Positions 3,576 to 61,900 of a stretch of 64,000 nt of DNA are shown piece after piece. How positions within the stretch are numbered: position 1 is the stretch's first letter; every line of letters begins with the position of its first letter. The stretch is taken from the NCBI GenBank assembly GCA_964016885.1, contig OZ024742.1, positions 353,462,001 through 353,526,000 of the forward strand, read 5' to 3'. The DNA is from Eledone cirrhosa (Eukaryota). Under the pieces are notes generated by a model. It was not told the DNA's origin. It saw only the letters and a list, made by a program, of their open reading frames with translations, and did no database searches. Made by a program: the position numbers and the translations under genes.

Positions 3576-3694
3576 ACATTAATGCAACCTATCTCTGAGG
3601 AATGGTCATCCATTTGCACTTTCATACTATGAGCAGGTTTTTCCTTTGAATCATCTATTGGAACACACGCCGTAACCCACCGCATGGTAATATA

Positions 3695-3772
<78 letters not shown>

Positions 3773-4057
3773 CAAATAACGAAACGAAATTAAATTTCGT
3801 TTCGCTTCTAACTCACTTTTGTATGACTGACGCTTAAACAATTAAGTTAAAGTGTACATCTACATATGTATACGGAAGTATTAGTATGCATATAAATACA
3901 CACATGAATACATATGTACATGTACTCAGCTTTTCACTAGACACTTTACAGTGAGTGTCAGCTAGTCTGTATGTAACCACACAGACGGACCGGGTTTTAG
4001 AGTCATACGGGTTTTCAAGGAAACACATTTCCTCTATTTTCCAGAGGGCCAGACAGG

Positions 4058-4102
4058 AATATTGGACTAGTTTCGATGTTATTACATCTCATCAGCAATA
4101 TT
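4058..4102 (-). ncRNA. Type I hammerhead ribozyme (469-bp unit, copy 1)
   Basis: aatattg-CTGATGA-gatgt(aata)acatc-GAAAC-ta-GTC-caatatt: 7-bp stem I, 5-bp stem II, palindromic ACTAGT stem III. Confidence 0.92.
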
Positions 4103-4162
4103 TACCCATCTTCCGGCTTCTCTGGAGAATTGTAAAAGCACATATCGTTATATGCTTTTTCA

Positions 4163-4208
4163 ATGAAAATTAGTAGTGGGTAGACCAATTTGCATAGAAC
4201 GTGAGTCA
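4163..4208 (-). promoter_or_regulatory. Candidate internal promoter module: AP-1 (TGACTCA), 6 nt, octamer (ATGCAAAT), inverted octamer-like site
   Basis: ATGAAAAT 4163-4170, ATTTGCAT 4188-4195, TGAGTCA 4202-4208; same layout in the diverged family at 45248-45294. Confidence 0.45.
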
Positions 4209-4526
4209 TTGTACGCACCGGTTCAGCGGAAACGATAAAAACAAATAAAGAAACGAAATTAAATTTCGTTTCGCTTCTAACTCACTTTCGTATGACTGAC
4301 GTTTAAACAATTAAGTTAAAGTGTACATCTACATATGTATACGGAAGTATTAGTATGCATATAAATACACACATGTATACATATGTACATGTACTCAGCT
4401 TTTCACTAGACACTTTACAGTGAGTGTCAGCTAGTCTGTATGTAACCACACAGACGGACCGGGTTTTAGAGTCATACGGGTTTTCAAGGAAACACATTTC
4501 CTCTATTTTCCAGAGGGCCAGACAGG

Positions 4527-4571
4527 AATATTGGACTAGTTTCGATGTTATTACATCTCATCAGCAATATT
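4527..4571 (-). ncRNA. Type I hammerhead ribozyme (469-bp unit, copy 2)
   Basis: Identical to 4058-4102. Confidence 0.92.
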
Positions 4572-4995
4572 TACCCATCTTCCGGCTTCTCTGGAGAATT
4601 GTAAAAGCACATATCGTTATATGCTTTTTCAATGAAAATTAGTAGTGGGTAGACCAATTTGCATAGAACGTGAGTCATTGTACGCACCGGTTCAGCGGAA
4701 ACGATAAAAACAAATAACGAAACGAAATTAAATTTCGTTTCGCTTCTAACTCACTTTTGTATGACTGACGCTTAAACAATTAAGTTAAAGTGTACATCTA
4801 CATATGTATACGGAAGTATTAGTATGCATATAAATACACACATGTATACATATGTACATGTACTCAGCTTTTCACTAGACACTTTACAGTGAGTGTCAGC
4901 TAGTCTGTATGTAACCACACAGACGGACCGGGTTTTAGAGTCATACGGGTTTTCAAGGAAACACATTTCCTCTATTCTCCAGAGGGCCAGACAGG

Positions 4996-5040
4996 AATAT
5001 TGGACTAGTTTCGATGTTATTACATCTCATCAGCAATATT
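4996..5040 (-). ncRNA. Type I hammerhead ribozyme (469-bp unit, copy 3)
   Basis: Identical to 4058-4102. Confidence 0.92.
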
Positions 5041-5249
5041 TACCCATCTTCCGGCTTCTCTGGAGAATTGTAAAAGCATATATCGTTATATGCTTTTTCT
5101 ATGAAAATTAGTAGTGGGTAGACCAATTTGCATAGAACGTGAGTCATTGTACGCACCGGTTCAGCGGAAACGATAAAAACAAATAACGAAACGAAATTAA
5201 ATTTCGTTTCGCTTTTAACTCACTTTTGTATGACTGACGCTTAAACAAC

Positions 5250-5288
5250 GCTGATGAGATGTAATAACATCGAAACTAGTCCAATATT
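5250..5288 (+). ncRNA. 5'-truncated hammerhead at the inversion junction
   Basis: Starts g-CTGATGA; lacks most of the 5' strand of stem I. Confidence 0.8.
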
Positions 5289-5712
5289 CCTGTCTGGCCC
5301 TCTGGGGAATAGAGGAAATGTGTTTCCTTGAAAACCCGTATGACTCTAAAACCCGGTCCGTCTGTGTGGTTACATACAGACTAGCTGACACTCACTGTAA
5401 AGTGTCTAGTGAAAAGCTGAGTACATGTACATATGTATACATGTGTGTATTTATATGCATACTAATACTTCCGTATACATATGTAGATGCACACTTTAAC
5501 TTAATTGTTTAAGCGTCAGTCATACAAAAGTGATTTAGAAGCGAAACGAAATTTAATTTCGTTTCGTTATTTGTTTTTATCGTTTCCGCTGAACCGGTGC
5601 GTACAATGACTCACGTTCTATGCAAATTGGTCTACCCACTACTAATTTTCATAGAAAAAGCATATAACGATATGTGCTTTTACAATTCTCCAGAGAAGCC
5701 GGAAGATGGGTA

Positions 5713-5757
5713 AATATTGCTGATGAGATGTAATAACATCGAAACTAGTCCAATATT
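5713..5757 (+). ncRNA. Type I hammerhead ribozyme (469-bp unit)
   Basis: aatattgCTGATGAgatgtaataacatcGAAACtaGTCcaatatt. Confidence 0.92.
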
Positions 5758-6182
5758 CCTGTCTGGCCCTCTGGAGAATAGAGGAAATGTGTTTCCTTGA
5801 AAACCCGTATGACTCTAAAACCCGGTCCGTCTGTGTGGTTACATACAGACTAGCTGACACTCACTGTAAAGTGTCTAGTGAAAAGCTGAGTACATGTACA
5901 TATGTATACATGTGTGTATTTATATGCATACTAATACTTCCGTATACATATGTATATGCACACTTTAACTTAATTGTTTAAGCGTCACTCATACAAAAGT
6001 GAGTTAGAAGCGAAACGAAATTTAATTTCGTTTCGTTAATTGTTTTTATCGTTTCCGCTGAACCGGTGCGTACAATGACCTCACGTTCTATGCAAATTGG
6101 TCTACCCACTACTAATTTTCATAGAAAAAGCATATAACGATATGTGCTTTTACAATTCTCCAGAGAAGCCGGAAGATGGGTA

Positions 6183-6227
6183 AATATTGCTGATGAGATG
6201 TAATAACATCGAAACTAGTCCAATATT
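6183..6227 (+). ncRNA. Type I hammerhead ribozyme (469-bp unit)
   Basis: Identical to 5713-5757. Confidence 0.92.
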
Positions 6228-6439
6228 CCTGTCTGGCCCTCTGGAGAATAGAGGAAATGTGTTTCCTTGAAAACCCGTATGACTCTAAAACCCGGTCCGT
6301 CTGTGTGGTTACATACAGACTAGCTGACACTCACTGTAAAGTGTCTAGTGAAAAGCTGAGTACATGTACATATGTATACATGTGTGTATTTATTTGCATA
6401 CTAATACTTCCGTATACATATGTAGATGTACACTTTAAC

Positions 6440-6483
<44 letters not shown>

Positions 6484-6560
6484 TAAAATAACAGATTAAA
6501 GTTTAAGCAAAGAAGCGCTGCAGTCACCCTTAACGGGATCTTCTGAAAAAAAATTATTAT

Positions 6561-6589
<29 letters not shown>

Positions 6590-9123: not shown

Positions 9124-9212
<89 letters not shown>

Positions 9213-9214
<2 letters not shown>

Positions 9215-9412
9215 CGAATGATGTGTGGTAAGGAACCAGGTGGACCATAACGTACCAGAGTACTTGATATTTTGGGTAGTACAGTGGATAATAGGGAAAT
9301 AGTCAGAATCCGGACGGCAGAGCTTAAGCCGTTTCTACTGATATTTCCGTATGAGTCCAGAAATAGCCGTTGAAACGGCTTGAGCTGATTTTGGGGTCCT
9401 GACTCTTTTCCT
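9213..9412 (-). mobile_element. Short fold-back PLE terminus footprint (family D)
   Basis: Internal inverted repeat plus ~75-nt tail; homologous to 23317-23562, 38668-38810 and 54086-54280. Confidence 0.7.
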
Positions 9413-23319: not shown

Positions 23320-23559
23320 AACCAGTAAGACCCCGACAGCTGAGCTCGAGCCGTTTCGACGGCTAATTCTGGACTAAAACGTTAGACTAAAATGTTAGAC
23401 TAAAATGTTACACTACTATTTTAGTCCAGAATTAGCCGTCGAAAAGGCTTGAGCTCAGCTGTCGGGGTCTTACTGGTTCCTATTACCCACTCTACTACCT
23501 CTAGTATTGAGTACTTTGGTGCGTTATGGTCCACCTGGTTCCTTACCACATTTCCTTCG

Positions 23560-23562
<3 letters not shown>
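23317..23562 (+). mobile_element. Short fold-back PLE terminus footprint (family D)
   Basis: Arms 23317-23379 / 23419-23482, loop with repeated gttagactaaaa, then ~78-nt tail. Confidence 0.75.
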
Positions 23563-23628
<66 letters not shown>

Positions 23629-23791
23629 TATAAATATATATATCACAAATCATGTCTATAGAATTATTAGATAAATAAAATATATATCATTTCCTCTGCC
23701 AATCACCATCATTAACCATATAGAAAATTAATTAGACCAAGCTATGAGGATAAAGGCTCCTATGAAGAAATCTCCAACAAACAAACGTATA

Positions 23792-24782
23792 TAGTAATAA
23801 TAATAAATTTGAAGACTAAAATCCAAAGTGGGCTCGATAAGGATAAATATATATCAGATATATAAGAACCGTAGAGCAAATATTTAGTAAAATAACAGAT
23901 TAAAGTTTAAGCCAAAAATCGCTGCTTTCACCCTTAACGGGATCTTCTGAAACTAACAAAGTCAATCTGTAAACGCAGAACTGGATATTTCAAAAAACGT
24001 TGCAACCGGGGGAAGACAGGAAGACGATACTTTGGTTCGTGGACACGTTCGCTATGCAAATAAATAAAGGTATAAACAAAACATATACTTAGCTCCCACA
24101 TCAAGACGTAAAATATCCACGTATAGATCGTACTATCAGTTAGGTTATAACGTCGGGCTGTAATACAGGAAAGTTTTGTGCAATATATGTTTACAAGCCG
24201 AAATTGCCTCAGATTTTTTGTTTAAGAATTGGTCTGTGGCGTAGAGTATTTCCAGGGCCTCAGCGGCGCAGAGGTCACATGGTCTTTTATTTCCGTTATA
24301 CGATCTTGCCCTAGCTAGGATCTGCCAGTGTAAATTATATTGGGTGTGTTTGTCTTTTAGACGACATATATAAGCTGTAAGTGACGTCATATTCCTTCTT
24401 AGAGGGTAACGAAAAGGATGGGTCTTCATGTAAAGACGCTGCTTGAATATATTGGCGGTTAACCCTATGTAGGCCCTACTGGACGTGAGTGTTACAACCT
24501 TACATTTGTAGACAATGTTACTAGAGAGGCATTTACCGGATAGGGAGCAATCAACCCGATTCCTACAATACAGTTAGTACTAACTACAGGGTTACACGTG
24601 TTCCTACGGCTAGGTAGTATAGCTAAATTTGAAGCTGTGATGTTATGTGCAAGGTTAGGAGTCATAGAGTAAGACATTTTAATAGTATTTCTATTAAAAA
24701 TGTTACTATATTTATGTGTAGGGGGAAAATGCTTCTTCGTAATAAGGGAAAGAAAGATCTTAGCTAATGGTGTGGCGAGCTC
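23792..24782 (-). pseudogene. 5'-truncated PLE family B (Hydra-clade-like) GIY-YIG endonuclease region plus 3' end
   Basis: HWQILARARSYNGNKRPCDLCAAEALEIL...LNKKSEAISACKH; homologous to 36859-37527. Confidence 0.85.
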
Positions 24783-35764: not shown

Positions 35765-35801
<37 letters not shown>

Positions 35802-35802
<1 letters not shown>

Positions 35803-38545
35803 GTAATTTGAGGACTAAAATCCAATGAGGGATCGATAAGGATAAATATATATCAAATATATAAGAACCCTAGAGCAAATATTTATTAAAATTATGGATT
35901 AAAGTTTAAGCAAAAATCGCTGCTTTCAGCCTTAACGGGATCTTCTGAAACTAACAAATTCAATCTGTGAACACAGAAGTGAATATATCAAAAAACGTTG
36001 CAACCGGAGGAAAACAGTAACACGATACTTTGGTTCGTGGAAACTTTCCCTGGCAAAGAACGGGAAAAAACGAATATTATACGTCATTATTTGGAACGGT
36101 GAAAAATAATTACACGCAAAGACAAAACCCGTTTATGGTATAAAAGATGTCGTTGACTAATATAATATTAGGTAGTTCATAGAGACGTTCTCTGGCAATG
36201 AACGGAAAAAACGAAGATAATACGTCATATGTGGGGCATGGATAACAATTGCACGCAAAGACAAAACCACGTAAAAGGTATAACTGAAGTCGTAGACTAA
36301 AATTCTAACTAGGAAACCGAATGATTCTCGGCTTCAGAGTTAAGAATAAAGAAAATAAAATACAGAGGTAATTGAAATTAAATAAATATATACACGCATC
36401 TATATACGTACATACACAAGCATACGCGAAAACACTCGCCATAGGTATACAAATACACGCATATATATATATATGTGTGTGTGTGCGTGTATAAAAATAA
36501 TTAAAGAAACGTATATAAATAAATAAATACGTATATACCAAGCGCACACACATACCTACATGTAAATACACATATGTTCGGAGTTTACTTCAACCAAAAC
36601 ACGAAGTACACGTATAGACACACCCTACATAAGTACGAACCCGCATACTCACACAGACGCAACACTCACCTATACACATAACCAAAAGCTTATGTAACAT
36701 ATTATATAAAATATACGCCATAACATATAAAATAAAATATACGTACGAAAATGTATACGTACCTTCACAAAACATACAGGTAATATATACTTACCTATAC
36801 AAATATGTAATGGTATAAACATAACATATACTTAGCTACCACATCAAGGCGTAAATTATCAGCATATAGATCGTACTATCCGTTTAGGGTATAATGTAGA
36901 GCTGTAATACTGGAAGGTTTTATGCAATTTATGTTTACAAGCCGAAATTGTCTCAGATTTTTTGTTTAAGATGTGGTCTTTGGCGTAGAGTATATCCAGG
37001 GCCTCAGCGGCGGAGAGGTCACACTGTCTTTTATTTCCGTTATACGATCTAGCCATAACTATGATCACCCAATGTAACTTAGATTGGGTGTGGTTGTCTT
37101 TTAGACTCCAGATATAAGCTGAAAGTGACGTCATATTCCTTCTTAAAGGGTAACGAAAAGAATGGGTATGCATGTAAAGACGCTGCTTGAATCTATTGGC
37201 GGTTAACCCTATGTAGGCCCTACGGGACGTCGGTGTTTCAACCTTACAATTGTAGACAATGTTACTAGAGAGGCATTTCCCGGATAGATGGCAGTCAATC
37301 CGATTTCTACAATTACAGTTAGTACTAGCTACAGGGTTGCACGTGTTCCCACGGCTAGGTAGCTTAGCTGAATTAGAAGCTGTGATGTTATGTGCAAGGT
37401 TAGGAGTCGTAGAGTAAGACATTTTAATAGTATTTCTATTAAACATTTTACTATATTTATGTGTAGGGGGAAAATGCTTCGTAATAAGGGAGAGAAAGAT
37501 CTTAGCTAATGGTGTGGCCACCTCCATATTATATGGTGGGTTATACCATATAATGCTTCCGGTTCTATTTCTTCTAGGTCTATTCTCGCACTCTGTATAT
37601 GCTAACTTATCGACAAATCCACTCCGAGCAAGAGCTTCATTGTAATATGTGGAATGGTCTTTGAAAATATTCTCGTAGATAGACGGGAAAGCCTCAAAGA
37701 AACGTTTCTTACCAGGTTCTTGGTTATGCTGGCAGGATGGTTAGAATGCTTACTTATGTAATTAAGCGTATCATTCGGATGTTTATACAAGTAATACAAA
37801 CCATTCGATAAATTGAGGGTAACGTCGAGGTAATTAACGACGGAGAGGTTGGCCTCAACCTCTATAGAGAGGTTGAAGCCTTTAAAGAAGGCTGTGAGTT
37901 ATTTTCTGAAACTGTCGCAAGCACGTGGGCCGCACTTAGTCATGGTCAAAAGACCATCATCACGGTACAAACCACCGCCCAGGTTGGGGAATTCGTCCTT
38001 GACAGAGAAAAGAAGGAAAAGGCCGATAAGATCAGTAACCTCCACAGAATCGCTGGCGCCCATACTCACGTCGAATGGGGTACTATTAGATATTCTAATC
38101 CCAATAGTGTCATCGAAATTAATCTCCGACTTACGAGCATTGAGGATGACATCAACTTCGAAATCCTTAACCACTGTGAGTGTTTTAGCGAAATTGAAAG
38201 CTCTAAGGAGAAGTGGTAAAGTGATGGAGGTGTAGTAATTATTGATGTCGAATTGGATAAAACGGCAATCTTCCTTCATGGATAGGCAGTTGAACAAATC
38301 AATCGCCGCGAAAAATTTATTCGACAATGCAAGAGGTGCCAAACTTCTAATTTCAGGTATAATTCTATCAAGAATCCTATTACTAAGTCTACCTAAAGCG
38401 GACTTCGTATGATTAATAAGCCGAATAGAGGGGTTGTTCGGAAAATCCATTTTGTGACCCTTCAGGATAAAGTGGGGAGAAATAGGCTCAAGAAGTCCGG
38501 TCCGGTCCAGGATGTTGAGATCAGAGGGGACTTTAAACACACTTC
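35802..38545 (-). mobile_element. Penelope-like element family B (Hydra-clade-like), 5'-truncated
   Basis: RT plus GIY-YIG followed by ~1 kb 3' region; (TA)n flanks. Confidence 0.9.
36859..38540 (-). pseudogene. PLE RT / GIY-YIG polyprotein with a stop at 37899 and a frameshift near 37680
   Basis: LKGHK..FPNNPSIRLIN, FIQFDINNYYTSI, FDVSMGASDS, GLYRDDGL; CNC..C.LSGKC, IVY..AYIGLT..FKQR..H, CDL..E, LNKKSE..CKH. Confidence 0.9.
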
Positions 38546-38608
38546 GTTAATTTCATTAATGACGCTCCGATTATATATACAACTCACTTTGCCGCGTACA
38601 GTCTTTAT

Positions 38609-38667
<59 letters not shown>

Positions 38668-38671
<4 letters not shown>

Positions 38672-38806
38672 TCCAGAATTAGCCGTCGAAACGACTTCAG
38701 CTCAGCCCTCGGTGTCCTACTCGTTCCTATTACCCACTCTACTACCCTAAGTTCTGAGTACTTTGGTGCGTTATGGTACACCTGGTTCCTTACCCCATTT
38801 CCTTCG

Positions 38807-38810
<4 letters not shown>
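38668..38810 (+). mobile_element. Family D PLE terminus (single arm plus tail)
   Basis: Homologous to 23422-23562. Confidence 0.7.
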
Positions 38811-38856
<46 letters not shown>

Positions 38857-40988: not shown

Positions 40989-40995
<7 letters not shown>

Positions 40996-43550
40996 ATACT
41001 TGGGGAGGGTCATATTTGCGTAATATTGCCAGAATTAATAACAGAACACACTCACTGTTTGGTTGGTTTTCGCTTCTCGCTGTCTTTTATTATATCTGCG
41101 ATCTAACTTACTCGGTCCTCAATGTTGCCATTGACTGACCGGCGGTCAAAAATAATACAGATACAATATAGACACAAACACATATATATATATATAGTTT
41201 ACATAATTTACATAAATCTTTCGTTGCACATCTGCAACATCGTCAGTGGTGTTATATTAATTGTTCCTCCTGTTGTGTTGTATGTCTACGCCATTTTTTT
41301 TTTGTTCAGTCTGTCTATATATTTATTTATTTATTTGCTTGTTTGTTTATCTTATTTTATTTTGTCTTCTTTGCGCATGCGTTTGCGTGTGTGTATAGTG
41401 TTATGTGTGATGTGTGACTAGTGTGTATAGTGTTGTGTCTGCTGGGTGACTAGTGTGTGTTTATGTGCTTGTTGTTATTGTGCTTGTGTATGTATTTATT
41501 TATCTTATTTTATTTAATTTTATTTACTTATTTATACTTCTCTTAGGTCAGTGTTGTTTGTTTGGGTGTTGTTGTTGTTCCACTCATTCTTTCTGTTTAG
41601 CTTTGGTCTTCTAATTTCTATTTCACGGGCCTCTCTGATTTGCCTATCTGCTGGGTCATTCCTATGTTTAGATATTATTCTAACTTCTATGTTGTCTATG
41701 TTACCGTCATGTTGTTGTCTAGCATGTTCGTATAGTACTGACCCGTTTTTTCGTCCTTTTAGTTCGCCCCAGTGTTGGTCTATCCTTTCACCTATGCTAC
41801 GAGCTGTCTCACCTATGTATGTTGTTGTCATGTTTCTGCAAGTACCCTCTGTACATCTTATGCTATAGACTACGTTTCTAGTTTTACAGTTTATCCGGGG
41901 GTTCACCTTACATATGATACACTTCCTATTGGTACAGTGGGTTTTCTTAAAAGGGTAGGTCTTGCTGATCAGGGATTTTATGGTGGTTCCTGGCTTTTCT
42001 ACCACCTTTATTTTTAAGTGGGTCTTTCTCAGGGCCTTTCTACACCGGTTAGCTAATTTTCCTCCAGGGGTGGCGTCCACAAACATGACACTCTGATATC
42101 TCTGGTTGTCGTACCATGATGTGGCCTTCCCTATCTTATGTCTAGCCCTATCTAAGCTATTCCATGATTTGCTCCTGTATAGTGGGCAGATTCCTTTCAT
42201 GTCCAGTTCTATGAGGGTCTTATACTTTTCCATGGCTCCTTCGTATACTCTGACTCTGTCTCTTTGGTTGTAGCCAGAGAACTACATGCGGTTGATGAAG
42301 TGTTGGATGTGTCCTTCCATTTCTGTTGGGTCGCACATGCTGGACACATTCTTCATCACTCGTACCAAATCTGCGATCAGAATATTAAACTTAGCACTAC
42401 TGGACATTGCTGAGATTTTGAGTATCAGGTATTTGGAAGCCATGGGTTTAGCATAGTGTGAGTGGAGAATTTGGGCTCTCTCGTCTATAGTGTTAATCCA
42501 GAGTTATGTGTCTAATACAAGTAGTCTATTGTTAGAGTGTTTGGAAGGGAAGTCTATAGTTACAGTTATACTCTGGTGTATGGAATTAGCTATATGCTGG
42601 ATGCTTTCCATCGTGCTACGTTCTAAATCAAACTTGTTAGTGCTCTCTAGTGGGGGTTTTCTTATAACTATATTGATATCGTCTACATAACGAGAGTACA
42701 TGATGAGGTCTATGGAGCTTTCATTAAGGAGATCTTTAAGTTTCCTTTCCCACCATACCATGAAAAGGTTGGCAACATCACCAGCTATGCTGACACCGAT
42801 GGCTGCTCCCTCATTTTGGGTGTAGATTTTCTCATTGAACTTAAATATGTGGCCCTTTAGGGTAGTTTTGATACTAGCCCCTATTGCATGTGCGACTATT
42901 TTTCTTACCTGATCAGTGTTTTGGGGGGTCCGTATGGCTTTGGTCCACCCAATCCACCTTCCTATGGGAGTCTTTTTAGCCATTGAGGTTATGGTGGGGG
43001 GTCTACCTCTTATAGGTCTACTAGGGCAGAAACATCTAAGGTCATGGCTGTCTAGGTAGTCAGTGTCGTAGGTAAGTCTAAGTAGAAGGCCCAGTTCGTC
43101 TGTGTCGACGTCGCAGAACTCCACCTCACTCTCAATGATCATCTCCACACATCTTTTCACAGCAAAATCAATGTTAATGGATGGGTACAGTGACACCACA
43201 TCCATGCTGCCTATTATGCAGTTGGATAGGCTCCTGTTTTTGTTGCACTCACTGATTCTGCTGAGGAGGTCCTCTGTACTTTCACATACATCTGGGGACA
43301 TCTTGATTATGGGGCGTATAACCATTGAGAGGAAGTAGGAGATCCTGTAATTGCTAGCTATATTAGCTCCGCATACGCGTCTTGTTGGTGGTCCTGTTGT
43401 CGGGTCGTCGACTGTCTTGTGGTCTTTGCGGAGCCCATACAAGGGTGGTATGCCATTGTTAGACGCCTGGAAGTTGTTTTGCAGTGCGTCTGCTTGGCTT
43501 TAGGATGTCAGTCCACATCATCATGTGAGCGTCAGTCCACATCATCCTCA
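40989..43550 (-). mobile_element. Penelope-like element family A1, 5'-truncated
   Basis: RT, GIY-YIG and pseudo-LTR; ends ...tataacaata in (TA)n. Confidence 0.92.
41532..43530 (-). pseudogene. PLE RT / GIY-YIG ORF with two in-frame stops (42504 and ~42284)
   Basis: YGLRKDHK, GSMDVVSLYPSI, QNEGAAIG, RYVDD, YAKPMAS; CIIC..NCKTRNVVY, YIGETARS..ER..QH, RQIREA, LNRKNEW; ORFs 42504-43442 and 41532-42233 share a frame. Confidence 0.92.
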
Positions 43551-44790
43551 ACGCTCACATGATGATGTGGACTGACATCCTAAAGCCAAGCAGACGTAAG
43601 ATAGGGAAGGCCACATCATGGTACGACAACCAGAGATATCAGAGTGTCATGTTTGTGGACGCCACCCCTGGAGGGAAATTAGCTAACCAGTGTAGAAAGG
43701 CCCTGAGAAAGACCCACTTAAAAATAAAGGTGGTAGAAAAGCCAGAAACCACCATAAAATCCCTGATCAGCAAGACCTACCCTTTTAAGAAAACCCACTG
43801 TACCAATAGGAAGTGTATCATATGTAAGGTGAACCCCCGGATAAACTGTAAAACTAGAAACGTAGTCTATAGCATAAGATGTACAGAGGGTACTTGCAGA
43901 AACATGACAACAACATACATAGGTGAGACAGCTCGTAGCATAGGTGAAAGGATAGACCAACACTGGGGCGAACTAAAAGGACGAAAAAACGGGTCAGTAC
44001 TATACGAACATGCTAGACAACAACATGACGGTAACATAGACAACATAGAAGTTAGAATAATATCTAAACATAGGAATGACCCAGCAGATCGGCAAATCAG
44101 AGAGGCCAGTGAAATAGAAATTAGAAGACCAAAGCTAAACAGAAAGAATGAGTGGAACAACAACAACACCCAAACAAACAACACTGACCTAAGAGAAGTA
44201 TAAATAGGTAAATAAAATTAAATAAAATAAGATAAATAAATACATACACAAGCACAATAACAACAAGCACATAAACACACACTAGTCACCCAGCAGACAC
44301 AACACTATACACACTAGTCACACATCACACATAACACTATACACACACGCAAACGCATGCGCAAAGAAGACAAAATAAAATAAGATAAACAAACAAGCAA
44401 ATAAATAAATAAATATATAGACAGACTGAACAAAAAAAAAGTGGCGTAGACATACAACACAACAGGAGGAACAATGAATATAACACCACTGACGATGTTG
44501 CAGATGTGCAACGAAAGATTTATGTAAATTATGTAAACTATATATATATATATGTGTTTGTGTCTATATTGTATCTGTATTATTTTTGACCGCCGGTCAG
44601 TCAATGGCAACATTGAGGACCGAGTAAGTTAGATCGCAGATATAATAAAAGACAGCGAGAAGCGAAAACCAACCAAACAGTGAGTGTGTTCTGTTATTAA
44701 TTCTGGCAATATTACGCAAATATGACCCTCCCCAAGTATAACAATATCTGTTTCGACACACGATTTCATATAAAAAACCTCGCAAAACTA

Positions 44791-44792
<2 letters not shown>
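43551..44792 (+). mobile_element. Inverted partial copy (endonuclease + pseudo-LTR + ~47-nt tail) of family A1
   Basis: 43597-44745 is a near-exact reverse complement of 40989-42138. Confidence 0.93.
44486..44525 (+). ncRNA. Minimal hammerhead motif in the A1 pseudo-LTR (mirror copy 41210-41249, -)
   Basis: CTGACGA-t-gttgca(gatg)tgcaac-GAAA-gatt-TA; stem I is weak. Confidence 0.6.
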
Positions 44793-50175: not shown

Positions 50176-50390
50176 CCTAATTGAGAATCAATGATTGGGG
50201 TCTTTTGATAGTAATATAGGATATAAAATGATATTGATGTGACAGCAGTACCCAACACGTTGACTGCGGCGTCTGAGATCAATAAAACTTCATACATACA
50301 TGTTTGCAACAATAATAAGAACATATTTAACAAAAGAAAACCATAACATTATTATCTACAATCACCGGTATGTGTGATTATATATATATA

Positions 50391-51367
50391 GTAGTAGAAC
50401 ACTGGAGGGTAATATCCGTAGTGATTAAGCACTCAGTCCATGGGACGAGTTGACGAGTTAGGTAGAAGTGGTTACACAACAATTAGTTCACCATACCGAG
50501 AACAATTGTTTCACCGTAGCGGATCCTCAGCTCGTAATGCTCATGGTTATACGGAATAGGAAGGACAGCCGTACGAACACACTTGGGCAGAAAACGGTCA
50601 CTTGACACAGGCAATACTAAAATGCGTGCGAGAGGGGTAAGGGAGATAACTGTGAAAGTCCGAAAAGTTTCTAGTTGATAAGAAAATTATGCTGTTGTAA
50701 TTCAATCCGGAGCTTTGTAGTTATGCAAGAGGTGTTTCGAGTCGTGTGGACAACGTGTGAAACATTAATTTCTCGTGTTTAGGCAATCACTATTGTATAA
50801 ACCCTTTAGAACATTTATTCGTTCATCAATACATTCCTGAACCACCAGTCAACATTTAGGTACACGGACAAACGTTCATCCACGAAACTCGCGAGCCACG
50901 TATAGTTCGTCAAGGACTCAAGTATAGACTACTCCATTCAATGGAAAGCCATCACTAAGTCCAAGCCATATGCAGGGGAAATCCGTCGTCTGGATTAGGT
51001 ATTGATGAACGAATAAATATTCTAAAGAGATTATGCAATAGTTATTGCCTAAACACGAGCAATGCATTATTCACACGTTGTCCACACGCCTTGAAACACC
51101 TCTTGCATAACTAAAAACTCCGGATTGAATTACAACAACAGCATAATTTTCTTATCAACTAGAAAGTTTTCAGACTTTCGCAGTTATCTGCCTTACACCT
51201 CTCGCACGCATTTAATATAGCCTGGTTTAAGCGACCGGTTTCTGCGCATGCGCGTTCGTACGGTTGTCCTTCCTGTTCCGTATAACCATGTCCATTACGA
51301 GCTGAGGATTCGCTAAGGTGAAACAATGCTTCTCAGTATGGTGATCTAACTTGTGTAACCACTTCTA
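50391..51367. mobile_element. Fold-back insertion of the PLE family C 3' region (minus arm with ~70-nt tail 50391-50833; plus arm 50834-51367)
   Basis: Both arms are homologous to 46500-47045. Confidence 0.88.
50497..50534 (-). ncRNA. Type I hammerhead in the family C pseudo-LTR
   Basis: cgag-CTGAGGA-t-ccg(cta)cgg-t-GAAAC-aatt-GTT-ctcg; mutated copies at 46973-47010 and 51298-51335. Confidence 0.78.
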
Positions 51368-52418: not shown

Positions 52419-54065
<1,647 letters not shown>

Positions 54066-54085
54066 ATATATATATATATATATAT

Positions 54086-54280
54086 AGGAAAAAGTATGAC
54101 CCCGACGGCAGAGCTCAAGCCGTTTAGACGGCTATTTCTAGACAAGAAATAGCCGTCGAAACGGCTTCAGCTCTGCCGTCGGGGTCATACTTTTTTCCTA
54201 TTTCCCACTCTACTACCCTAAGTATTGAGTACTTTGGTGCGTTATGGTCCATCTGGTTCCTTACCGCAATTCCTTTGTTA
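54086..54280 (+). mobile_element. Short fold-back PLE terminus footprint (family D)
   Basis: Arms ~54086-54140 / 54146-54200 plus ~78-nt tail. Confidence 0.75.
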
Positions 54281-58922: not shown

Positions 58923-61900
58923 ATGACCATACTCAGAATAGTCATCATTAATCCGCGTGGCATTGGGTCATCCTGGAAGTAGGGCCACCTGCTCAATGAC
59001 CTCAGGTCATTAAACATAGATGTAGTGGCCATCAGCGAGACGAGACTGTCCAAAGCTTGAGCCTTTGCACCGATCTTCGGCGGCTACGATTTATACGCAA
59101 CACACAGCCGTCCAGAATCAGGGGTAGGAGTTACTGTGCTTTTTCGGAGAGGCTTGGAACTCCCCATACGGGGCATCTTCCTGGACCCAGAAGGTAAGTC
59201 GGTGGTGATGGACGTGACCTGCAGCGAAGTCAATAGTTTCAGGATAGCAGCCGTTTACGCACCAACAGGGGCAGGACAGCCATATTTCTTCAGACGTCTA
59301 GAGACCTATCTTGGAACGTCCCGCTCTTTAGTGTTTGTGGGCGACTGGAACGGTATCTTAGATGCACGCTCTGATTATGTGGGGCCAGTAGACAGGGCAG
59401 GAGTGTGTAAAGGCCTCAACAACATGCTCTGACTTTTTGAACTGTCTGACAGGTATCGACTGGATTATCCCAATGTGACAAACCGCAACGGGTCATTCAG
59501 ATCGTATTTAAATATGGTATTCTGTAGGGAAACAGATAAGGCTACTGTAGGTTGTCCACAATTTAAAGTAATTGACTACACGGACCACAAGTTTGTGATC
59601 TGTGAAGTTGATTTAGATAGACTCCATAGGCAACTGAAACCTGAACGCGTCGTTCCCAGCGCGGAAAGCTTACAGAGACCGGATTAGAGAATTAGTTAAG
59701 CGTGCGTTGACGGGTGAGATCGTGAACAACACGTGGTGGTTTAACCTGAAAAGGGCTATTAGAGTAGAATAGATAAGGTTTAGCAAAGAAGTAGTGATAG
59801 AGGAAAATAAAGTAGAGGGAGAGTTAGTTAGAAAGCTAGAAAAGGCGTTTAGGACAGGCATCGCGGCGTGTTTGCGACGAGATTGGCACTCGACCTTTTC
59901 TTCAACGCAAAGCATGAGGGCTGCGTTGTCAGAGCTAGAGCGCGTGCTCTGAGACACGAGGAGACGAAAGCGGTTCAATGGGCCCGGGTGGTGGAGGCGC
60001 AACGTAGCAACAATTCCCCAATTCGGTTTTTCCCTGATCAAATCGGGCGTATGTTGCTCGTACCCGAGCAAATGTGTGAGGCTTTTCAACAGCTCTTTGG
60101 TCAATTTTTCGGGGGCGGCGGTGGGCCTGATCGGAGTAGGGACTTTGGTGCATACCTGGACTGACTGCCGGGGCTCTTGACAACGGCAGCGCAGTGCTGC
60201 GAAAAGCCAATAACAACAGGTGAAATACGGGAAGCGATGTCTGACTGCACGGAGGTGTAAATTGCCAGGTTTCGATGGCCTCCCTACCAGCTTTATGCGT
60301 ATATGCCAGACATGTTCGGTGACCTATTGGCAGATGTCTACTGCAACTGGAAGCAGAATAGGAACATTCCCAGCTTTGTGAACCGGGGAGCGGTGGAGCT
60401 GCTGAGAAAAGACCCTAAAAAGGGGGATGCTATAGACAACTTCAGGCCCATAACTCTTCTAAACGCAGAGTTTAAGATTTTGGCCAAGTTGTTAGGAAAG
60501 AGATGGGCGCTTGTCGTCGGTGATCGGAGGGAGAGGCGCAGACATGCGCCATTCGGGACAGATCCATCCATGACAACCTCCATCTCATGCGATACATCTT
60601 AGAAAGGGCGGTTAAGGAACCTGGCACGGGTTGGGTCCTGATCAACTTGGATGAATCTAAAGCATTTGATAGGGTCAACCATCGGGACCTGGCTGCAGAC
60701 TTCGAGGTGGTCGGCTTCGGGTCCGTTTTAAAGGAGCTGGATCGCTGCGATGTACAGCAACACCTGCTCGAGTGTGAGGGTGAATGGTCACCTGTGGCAG
60801 CCTTTCAGCATCATACGCTCGGTCCGCCAAGATTGCCACCTCTAGTCCCTCTTTTACGTATTTGCCCTCGAGCCGTTACTGCACAAATTGAAGACGATGA
60901 AGGGTGTCCGACGCGAACTGGGATGCGGGAGATCCGTGTCAGCTTACGCCGACAACGCCAGCGTGGTCGTGTCCATCACCGCTTTCAAGGAAAACGAAGT
61001 GGTGGCAGGAGCAAAGATAAACCAGGAAAAGTCGGTGGGCTTGCAACTCGGCACTTCGAGAGGCAAGTCCATGCTGTCCTACAGCGTGGTGGAGCGCTGG
61101 AAGGAAGAGCCGGTTAAATTGCTCAGGGTATGTTTCAGTCCGGACCTCCAGATGGAGAAAAATTGGAGCGAGGAGACCAGTAGGGTGACCTCTCTCACCC
61201 AGAAATGGGCTGAGAGGAGGCTGTCTCTGAAAGGTTGAGCGGAGGTGGCGAATGCGTACATAGCGTCCGTCATCTGCTACCACCTGACTGTTGTACCTTG
61301 CCCCCGCCCAACTATGACGACCAAAATGAAGCCCATTCTCTTCCGCTTGTTGGGGAGGTGACGTGTTCCCATGGTCACTGATCCATTTGCTGTCAACACC
61401 TGTTGCGTGCAGGACTAGGCATGCCGTGGCTGATGATGCACAAATATGCGCTGGTCCTTCCTTGACGGTGAACAGGTGTGGTAGCCAGACGCGCTTTTCC
61501 CCAGCTCCTCTCCTTGACGGAAAAGACCGAGTGATAGCGCTTGGAAGCTGGAATGTCTCCTAGCGCTCACCGCCCTCTCCCAGCTGGGCATGGTATCGTT
61601 GGAAAATCCACCTCGGCGTTCTATAGAGGTCTAGTGGAGGGAAGGAGCGACGATGTTCTCGAGGACGACATAGTTGTCAACGTCGATCAGATGTTCGCTC
61701 TCTTCAAGAGAACTTTCAGACCAGGGCTTATGGACAACTTCCAAAAATCCTTTGCCTGGTAGTGCCACCAGGGAGTGTTGCCGGTTCGGGATAAGCTCTA
61801 CAGGCACGGAAGTACTGTCAACAGAGCCTATCAGAGATGCGTGCAGGGCGACGAAACCGTCGTGCACGCACTCATTCAGTGCCCGAGGACTGCTGATTTG

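Follow-up and report, generated by a model that had tools for sequence, protein, structure and literature searches.

A young retrozyme insertion with a Penelope-like footprint in Eledone cirrhosa, and the paired fixed ends of its family

The stretch of Eledone cirrhosa DNA analysed here (the window; 64,000 nucleotides of contig OZ024742.1) carries, between two (TA)n target tracts (3690..3765 and 6446..6483), a two-armed array of a 469-nt repeat whose period is kept with 98% matches. One arm occupies 3766..5248 on the minus strand and consists of 3.16 head-to-tail units, running from unit position 256 at its inner end to position 331 at its outer end; the other occupies 5250..6445 on the plus strand and holds 2.55 units, from position 1 to position 257 (position 1 being the G that precedes CTGATGA, at 5250 of the window). 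The arms lie head to head with their 3' ends facing outward, both outer ends adjoin (TA)n, and the joint between them is a single untemplated C at 5249, where a T would be expected next from either arm. The end of the plus arm at 6445 is equivalent to position 3840, and the minus arm is 74 nt longer, reaching 3766; this tail (3766..3839, minus strand; unit 258-331) is found at this outer end only and contains a CGAAACGAAAT-TTA-ATTTCGTTTCG hairpin. We refer to the outer end that bears the tail as the long end (L) and to the other as the short end (S). An earlier note on this DNA had described the array in these terms, and its account holds for the change of strand between 5248 and 5250, for the (TA)n at both ends and for the extra length of the minus arm, which it had put at about 75 nt. 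The L arm is 98.7% and the S arm 99.2% identical to the reference unit, and three variant columns (58, 241 and 404) differ among the units of this one copy. Between 3766 and 6445 there is no open reading frame of 120 or more amino acids, and an LTR is also absent. The right flank of the array (6478-6563) is a short piece of another repeat family, similar to that at 35800-36300, and is itself closed by (TA)n; insertions evidently pile up within the same TA tracts.

Five intact type I hammerhead motifs lie in the array, at 5702..5772 and 6172..6242 on the plus strand and at 4981..5051, 4512..4582 and 4043..4113 on the minus strand. They score 31.8 bits (E 2e-5) against the Rfam model HH9 and do not reach its gathering score of 52; at gathering scores Rfam gives zero matches, and the microRNA matches from the scan that gave these bit scores were rejected as AT-rich hairpins far under their cut-offs. 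A further, truncated hammerhead at 5250..5282 (plus strand) comprises the core with stems II and III, aligns to HH9 positions 18-55 only (21.6 bits) and is without the 5' strand of stem I because the plus arm begins there. By the hammerhead consensus, the predicted cut falls after GUC at unit position 32/33 (5750/5751 in the motif at 5702..5772). Stem II shows an A-U for U-A swap between subfamilies, stem III is the palindromic ACUAGU, of the short kind that is said to act as dimers (PMC4209133), and the predicted fold of the 469-nt unit has a z score of -9.3; a transcript of the unit may self-cleave at the hammerhead. Metazoan non-LTR retrozymes, as described, are likewise dispersed and non-coding; their repeats, a few hundred bases long, stand head to tail, and like this unit they bear a type I hammerhead whose stem III is short and palindromic (PMC7229834; bioRxiv 10.64898/2026.07.22.740005). 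At 469 nt the unit falls within their range of about 150-1000 nt. The class of element and its proposed cycle are already known from these accounts. Unlike autonomous Penelope-like elements (PLEs), the array has no open reading frame for a reverse transcriptase (RT) and GIY-YIG nuclease, and is hence non-autonomous; it is a real, young retrozyme insertion that bears the footprint of a PLE.

The earlier note had listed three coding PLEs in the window with the same geometry of one tailed end. Unequal ends are present in all three, but their coding capacity differs. The first, which we call PLE-A (40991..44791; S end left, L end right, tail of about 45 nt), is a two-armed, 5'-truncated coding element with an RT and, at its C terminus, a domain of GIY-YIG type, and is a candidate partner of the retrozyme. 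A CX4CXXC motif before its C-terminal nuclease suggests, by the description in PMC8557442, membership of the Neptune or Nematis clade. The second (52583..54065; S left, L right, tail of about 60 nt) shares the tailed-end geometry but is a remnant that retains just a 125-aa GIY-YIG fragment (E 0.0015, below the cut-off), while the third (50390..51367; L left, S right, tail of 73 nt) is non-coding, without an open reading frame of 120 or more amino acids, and is perhaps another non-autonomous, PLE-dependent family. A hammerhead-like core (CTGAGGA...GAAA) that the stem filter missed was seen by eye near 51304, within this third element.

Elsewhere in the genome, PLE-A copies are 98-99% identical in protein, and open frames of 1217-1218 codons are found in all three long copies examined (L174, L175 and L176); the same three have, ahead of the RT, an asparagine-rich insert of about 170 residues, which recalls the N-rich inserts of rotifer Penelopes (PMC3846280). 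Among 15 copies fetched, 12 are two-armed (11 of them chosen for hits on both strands) and every one of these has one S and one L end; the remaining three show a single S end each. Two versions of the PLE-A L end occur, separated by 10-12 nt, one in 8 and the other in 4 of the 12 copies. Compared with a full PLE-A copy, the retrozyme unit gives a best match of E 0.06 in an AT-rich stretch, which is not significant, and it has no matches to the other PLE pieces in the window; nor does any sequence similarity in the unit support derivation from the pLTR of PLE-A. The published link between retrozymes and PLEs is one of co-occurrence and pLTR similarity (PMC7229834; bioRxiv 10.64898/2026.07.22.740005), whereas the link here is the footprint of insertion, with no pLTR similarity found in these comparisons. 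In L131 and L046, an 8-nt stub of the PLE-A long end is followed by a PLE-A stretch of about 3.9 kb. This stretch breaks off 24 nt before the short end, where it meets retrozyme sequence of exactly 3.0 units that ends at 331. We rejected the tandem arrangement in L046 as proof of partnership, given that insertion of the retrozyme beside an older PLE-A, with a 24-nt loss, explains it equally well.

Several other pieces of the window deserve mention in their own right. At 54086-54278 and at about 38668-38856, copies of a small family without coding capacity lie between (TA)n tracts; they have a short inverted arm and a tail of roughly 80 nt, and relatives also match 9142-9294 and 23480-23642. 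Fragments of a further PLE family, with RT-like and GIY-YIG-like frames, occupy 36859-38546 and 24145-24573 on the minus strand; the two pieces of this family that were scanned gave zero Pfam matches. Hammerhead-like cores with a stem II of 6-7 bp occur in the terminal repeats of PLE pieces at 1151, 41246, 44489 and 52772, and broken frames at 59061-61238 resemble, by eye, a LINE endonuclease and reverse transcriptase.

The genome (3.0 Gb) contains 2093 exact junctions of unit position 331 to (TA)n and 9305 hammerhead core motifs of this retrozyme family, and copies of the youngest subfamily are 98-99% alike. Judged from these sequences, the copies are dispersed and recently mobile, and the window locus is one ordinary copy among thousands. 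We mapped 113 insertions in three batches, with a reference set of seven natural units (86-100% alike). The first batch comprised the window and 36 insertions from the best full-unit matches, which were not selected for their ends (one duplicate and three stretches without units were excluded); the second was drawn from the L junctions listed first on contig C1 and comprised 60 insertions (one duplicate was removed, and one stretch contained two insertions); and the third was drawn from 18 stretches around listed S junctions and comprised 16 insertions, after exclusion of two duplicates and of a copy interrupted by TA tracts. The count of S junctions (205 forward and, with overlapping matches, 592 reverse) is subfamily-specific and not comparable with the 2093 L junctions, and inside (TA)n tracts a target-site duplication is not distinguishable. 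The arms have median lengths of 613 and 567 nt, with no correlation between the two (rho 0.09); of 63 insertions, 25 have more than one unit on both arms and 9 have more than two. At the L075 region (contig C1, about 5.738-5.753 Mb) one arm has at least 30 consecutive units and the opposite arm 343 nt, while L067 has an arm of 14.7 units in which variants (29C with 258A; 181A) recur at a roughly two-unit rhythm, a pattern that a dimeric template or duplication in place would give.

In the end-unbiased first batch, 30 of 63 3' ends fall at unit 327-331 (L), 30 at 254-263 (S) and 3 elsewhere; the ends are not random among copies, as the earlier note's reading required, and with 60 of 63 at two sites they far exceed chance. 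Both ends could be typed in 72 of the 113 insertions, and 71 of these have one L and one S end, with a single L/L and no S/S. PLE-style unequal ends, which the note had claimed for the window array, are thus borne out among the typed insertions, a tail of 74 nt standing at one end only. The first batch alone gives L/S in 24 of 25 typed insertions (P 8e-7 against 50%); eight of the 71 L/S insertions have as one arm a stub under about 25 nt, typed by motif. In the sole L/L case, L032, most of the left arm (its outer 450 nt) comes from another subfamily. Across the mapped insertions the L and S ends adjoin (TA)n, and the S ends form clusters at 257, 259 and 262; every one of these positions offers a U or UA with which a primer with a terminal TA could pair. 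For 34 of the 113 insertions the second end is neither L nor S: 15 run into TA directly or via an unrelated stub, 10 have no nearby TA and 9 end at another unit position. A further 7 of the 113 extended past the fetched DNA.

At seven loci (L036, L047, L053, L060, L063, L089 and L102) a retrozyme arm lies head to head with an arm of another family. The foreign arms are often just 36-100 nt long and end in (TA)n; that in L063 is almost exactly the tail of its own family, that in L102 is the long end of PLE-A, and that in L089 is a PLE-type RT frame from another family. Such mixed pairs could reflect two RNAs in one complex, or later rearrangement or deletion between neighbours.

The inner ends behave quite differently from the outer ones. 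It had been claimed that the array flips strand at the hammerhead core, and in the window the plus arm does begin there; tabulated over insertions, the inversion points are spread and unlinked to the core. The ribozyme core (460-10) holds 7 of 184 inner ends against 7.8 expected, a narrower span (467-4) holds 5 against 2.7 (P 0.14), and the predicted cut site holds 4 against 4.3. A position scan of the 121 arms longer than one unit found no significant peak (P 0.16-0.58). A flip at the core is therefore rejected as a rule by the scatter of inner ends, and that the window's plus arm begins at the core is within chance. More L arms than expected end near the S site (14 of 95 within 236-267, against 6.5, the span having been picked post hoc), and the window's own L arm ends near it, at 256. 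Inner ends looked slightly over-represented at the L site (325-342), with 9 of 184 against 7.1 expected, or 9 of 121 among arms longer than one unit (nominal P 0.04), but this was not kept. The joints themselves (n=63) have overlaps of 0-5 nt in 42 cases, inserts in 18 and longer palindromic overlaps in 3 (L033, L093 and L088, with 6, 8 and 32 nt), and the offset between the inner ends of the two arms is spread across the whole unit.

Variable sites were compared in 84 insertions of three subfamilies, L032 being excluded. The two arms of one insertion have fully the same haplotype in 46 of 48 cases, compared with 388 of 1437 arm pairs (27%) taken between insertions. Of 63 L/S pairs, 13 have arms neither of which could have been copied from its partner, and in 26 the S arm is longer than the L arm. 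Two independent primings on one template fit both the shared haplotypes and the arm lengths; fold-back copying fits the former but fails on the latter, and two independent primings are therefore preferred.

The nature of this template may be judged from changes repeated within insertions. In L108 all covered units of both arms carry the same eight A>G changes. A motif that includes five of these has four occurrences genome-wide, three in one arm and one in the other, all at L108. We take such A>G clusters in retrozyme copies to be ADAR editing, and the marks in L108 are what would be expected if one edited monomer were read repeatedly by both polymerases. Counted on the hammerhead strand, changes fixed within an insertion comprise 23 A>G and 8 T>C, while single-unit changes comprise 25 and 27 (Fisher P 0.023 against fixed changes); a bias on this strand would point to a sense template. 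The excess leans on one locus: once L108's private changes are removed, locus-unique A>G and T>C changes stand at 11 to 6 (P 0.17). An A>G cluster in L087 was rejected as a second private editing scar, being inherited and present in 69 units in 7 places. The 385 hammerhead junctions at the predicted cut site show zero added bases and one 1-nt loss, and such clean junctions would favour a ligated circle over template jumping. We did not retain as evidence for a circle a 499-nt contig in run X4 that closes on itself, since a tandem array yields an identical graph. There are also 58 listed variant columns that differ in only some units of an insertion; these, with the rhythm in L067, need either later gene conversion or multimeric templates.

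A mechanism for these insertions has to account for the observed two-arm layout, the two fixed and paired ends, the scattered inner ends and the single haplotype of each insertion. Our essential contention is that two ends of a break in (TA)n are primed by a PLE enzyme on one RNA, and this much we hold to be very likely; the fuller account, in which that RNA is a monomer circle, is probable on the sequence evidence. First, the hammerhead strand of an existing array would be transcribed, the transcript would be cleaved into monomers and these ligated, and the resulting retrozyme RNA would sometimes undergo A-to-I editing. A PLE complex, probably a dimer, would then bind near unit 257-331 and cut both strands of a (TA)n tract; one DNA end would prime at U331 and the other at a U 69-77 nt upstream, each through 1-2 nt of pairing. 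Both polymerases would traverse several units and stop at random, and the inner ends would finally be joined by microhomology or with a short insert. The flip at the core in the window copy is an accident of such random stopping. The suggestion of the earlier note, that multimeric cDNA from a circular template had been inserted by PLE machinery, survives in part: the L and S ends, the (TA)n targets and the rule shown by a coding PLE family all speak for PLE-type machinery, and a multimeric cDNA from one monomer template is supported, of which a circle is the likeliest form. The insertion is, moreover, more readily explained by two cDNAs, primed apart and linked through their inner ends, than by a single cDNA that changes direction. 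Against our explanation are the mixed-family arm pairs, the variants confined to some units and the 34 of 113 second ends that are typed as neither L nor S, as well as the weight of L108 in the A>G excess, the lack of significant similarity between the unit and PLE-A, and the length of the tail compared with that of described PLEs. More specifically, we give an even chance to a PLE dimer that is asymmetric, in which the two reverse transcriptases begin at sites separated by 74 nt on one closed, sometimes edited RNA circle and roll simultaneously from opposite ends of the break, such that the tail and the inverted arm are obligatory products.

The alternative that fares best retains the two-ended PLE priming and changes only the template, which would be linear, either an uncut multimer of the source array or a cut monomer that is re-entered by template jumping. 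In vitro, PLE reverse transcription took unprocessed RNA and had no need of ribozyme cleavage (PMC11167929), and the 58 partly shared variant columns and the rhythm of L067 match an inherited array. The weak, post hoc enrichment of L-arm inner ends at the S site (14 of 95, 6.5 expected) and the end of the window's L arm at 256 are likewise what a linear template with twin-priming geometry would give, but stalling at the S site is possible on a circle too. An uncut multimer should be edited unit by unit, whereas the marks of L108 are in all units and single-unit changes have no A>G excess; template jumping should leave scars at the cut site or mixed haplotypes, and neither was found. We consider a linear template unlikely.

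That one cDNA folds back or primes itself, the second arm being its copy and the tail what is left when the intermediate is resolved, would explain the shared haplotypes at once. Self-priming on an antisense template has been proposed for rotifer PLEs (PMC3846280), and the three palindromic joints (L033, L093 and L088; 6, 8 and 32 nt) are of the kind expected. Yet arm lengths in 13 of 63 pairs allow neither direction of copying and the S arm is the longer in 26, the lengths are uncorrelated (rho 0.09) with inner-end offsets spread over the whole unit, and the A>G bias on the hammerhead strand would indicate a sense template. As a general route fold-back is refuted by the arm lengths, and we think it very unlikely as the explanation here, although it may apply to the few palindromic joints.

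Highly improbable, too, is the proposal that monomers or short copies insert and that the arrays grow later as satellite DNA, by slippage and unequal exchange that also homogenise them. Neighbouring units do share blocks of variants (in the window, L067, L075 and L115), local amplification has been put forward for retrozymes (bioRxiv 10.64898/2026.07.22.740005), and growth of this sort has probably contributed to the longest arrays. Tandem expansion, however, requires a dimer to start from, and it would have to produce both arms above one unit in 25 of 63 insertions and above two in 9, in copies that are 98-99% alike, with non-integer lengths and exact ends. Finally, that the inversion is an artefact of assembly or chimeric reads is scarcely credible: the window joint was not seen in four public sequencing runs, possibly of other individuals, but the arms are not mirror images and their flanks differ, the L/S rule holds at 71 loci with differing joints, and contigs from two unrelated runs (X1 and X5) also contain the junction of the L end with (TA)n.

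Two-ended priming on one RNA has an analogue in the twin priming of LINE-1, in which two target ends prime on one RNA, the first cDNA stops at the second priming site and the head-to-head cDNAs are joined by microhomology. The likeness lies in the two-ended priming, the head-to-head arms and the microhomology joints. Unlike LINE-1, the retrozyme has no poly(A) and both of its priming sites are internal and fixed; its arms overlap many times over in unit sequence, and just 14 of 95 L arms end at 236-267, near the second site.

PLEs themselves offer closer parallels. EN+ PLEs are described with an inverted, 5'-truncated copy on the 5' side, a one-ended tail and (TA)n targets, as here (PMC8557442, PMC3846280), the inverted truncated copy being common, and in Drosophila a 34-bp repeat and inverted terminal repeats are reported for Penelope (PMC2377424). 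In vitro, an EN+ PLE protein cuts and extends both strands, starts reverse transcription at two internal RNA sites that bound the tail, comparable to the L and S sites here, and is predicted to be a dimer; the start sites were the same for both DNA strands, which counts against our explanation (PMC11167929). The differences are that the tail is 74 nt here and 30-40 nt in the PLEs described (PMC8557442), that both arms here are multimeric and about equally long (medians 613 and 567 nt), unlike those of EN+ PLEs, and that the pairing of L with S, counted here, is near-strict, whereas the tail is said to be 'often' or 'optionally' at one end (PMC8557442, PMC3846280). Putative non-autonomous multicopy elements have been noted in Chlamys (PMC8557442).

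For metazoan retrozymes, it has been proposed that PLEs mobilise them and that circles serve as template (PMC7229834; bioRxiv 10.64898/2026.07.22.740005). Two-armed head-to-head insertions, fixed paired ends and editing marks are absent from the available parts of these accounts, and the words 'inverted' and 'orientation' do not occur in PMC7229834. Our literature search found no report of L/S pairing or of editing marks in retrozyme copies, though subscription journals and supplements may hold one, and a single template per insertion was not found in the literature searched.

The origin of the inverted arm and one-sided tail of PLEs, and the copying of animal retrozymes from circles, are both called open in the parts of the literature consulted (PMC8557442, PMC7229834, bioRxiv 10.64898/2026.07.22.740005). 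The family described here provides countable footprints for both questions, in the pairing of start sites, the use of one RNA per event and the marks carried by every unit. It also names two RNA sites (unit 331 and unit 254-263) and a target for an in vitro test of the type reported in PMC11167929.
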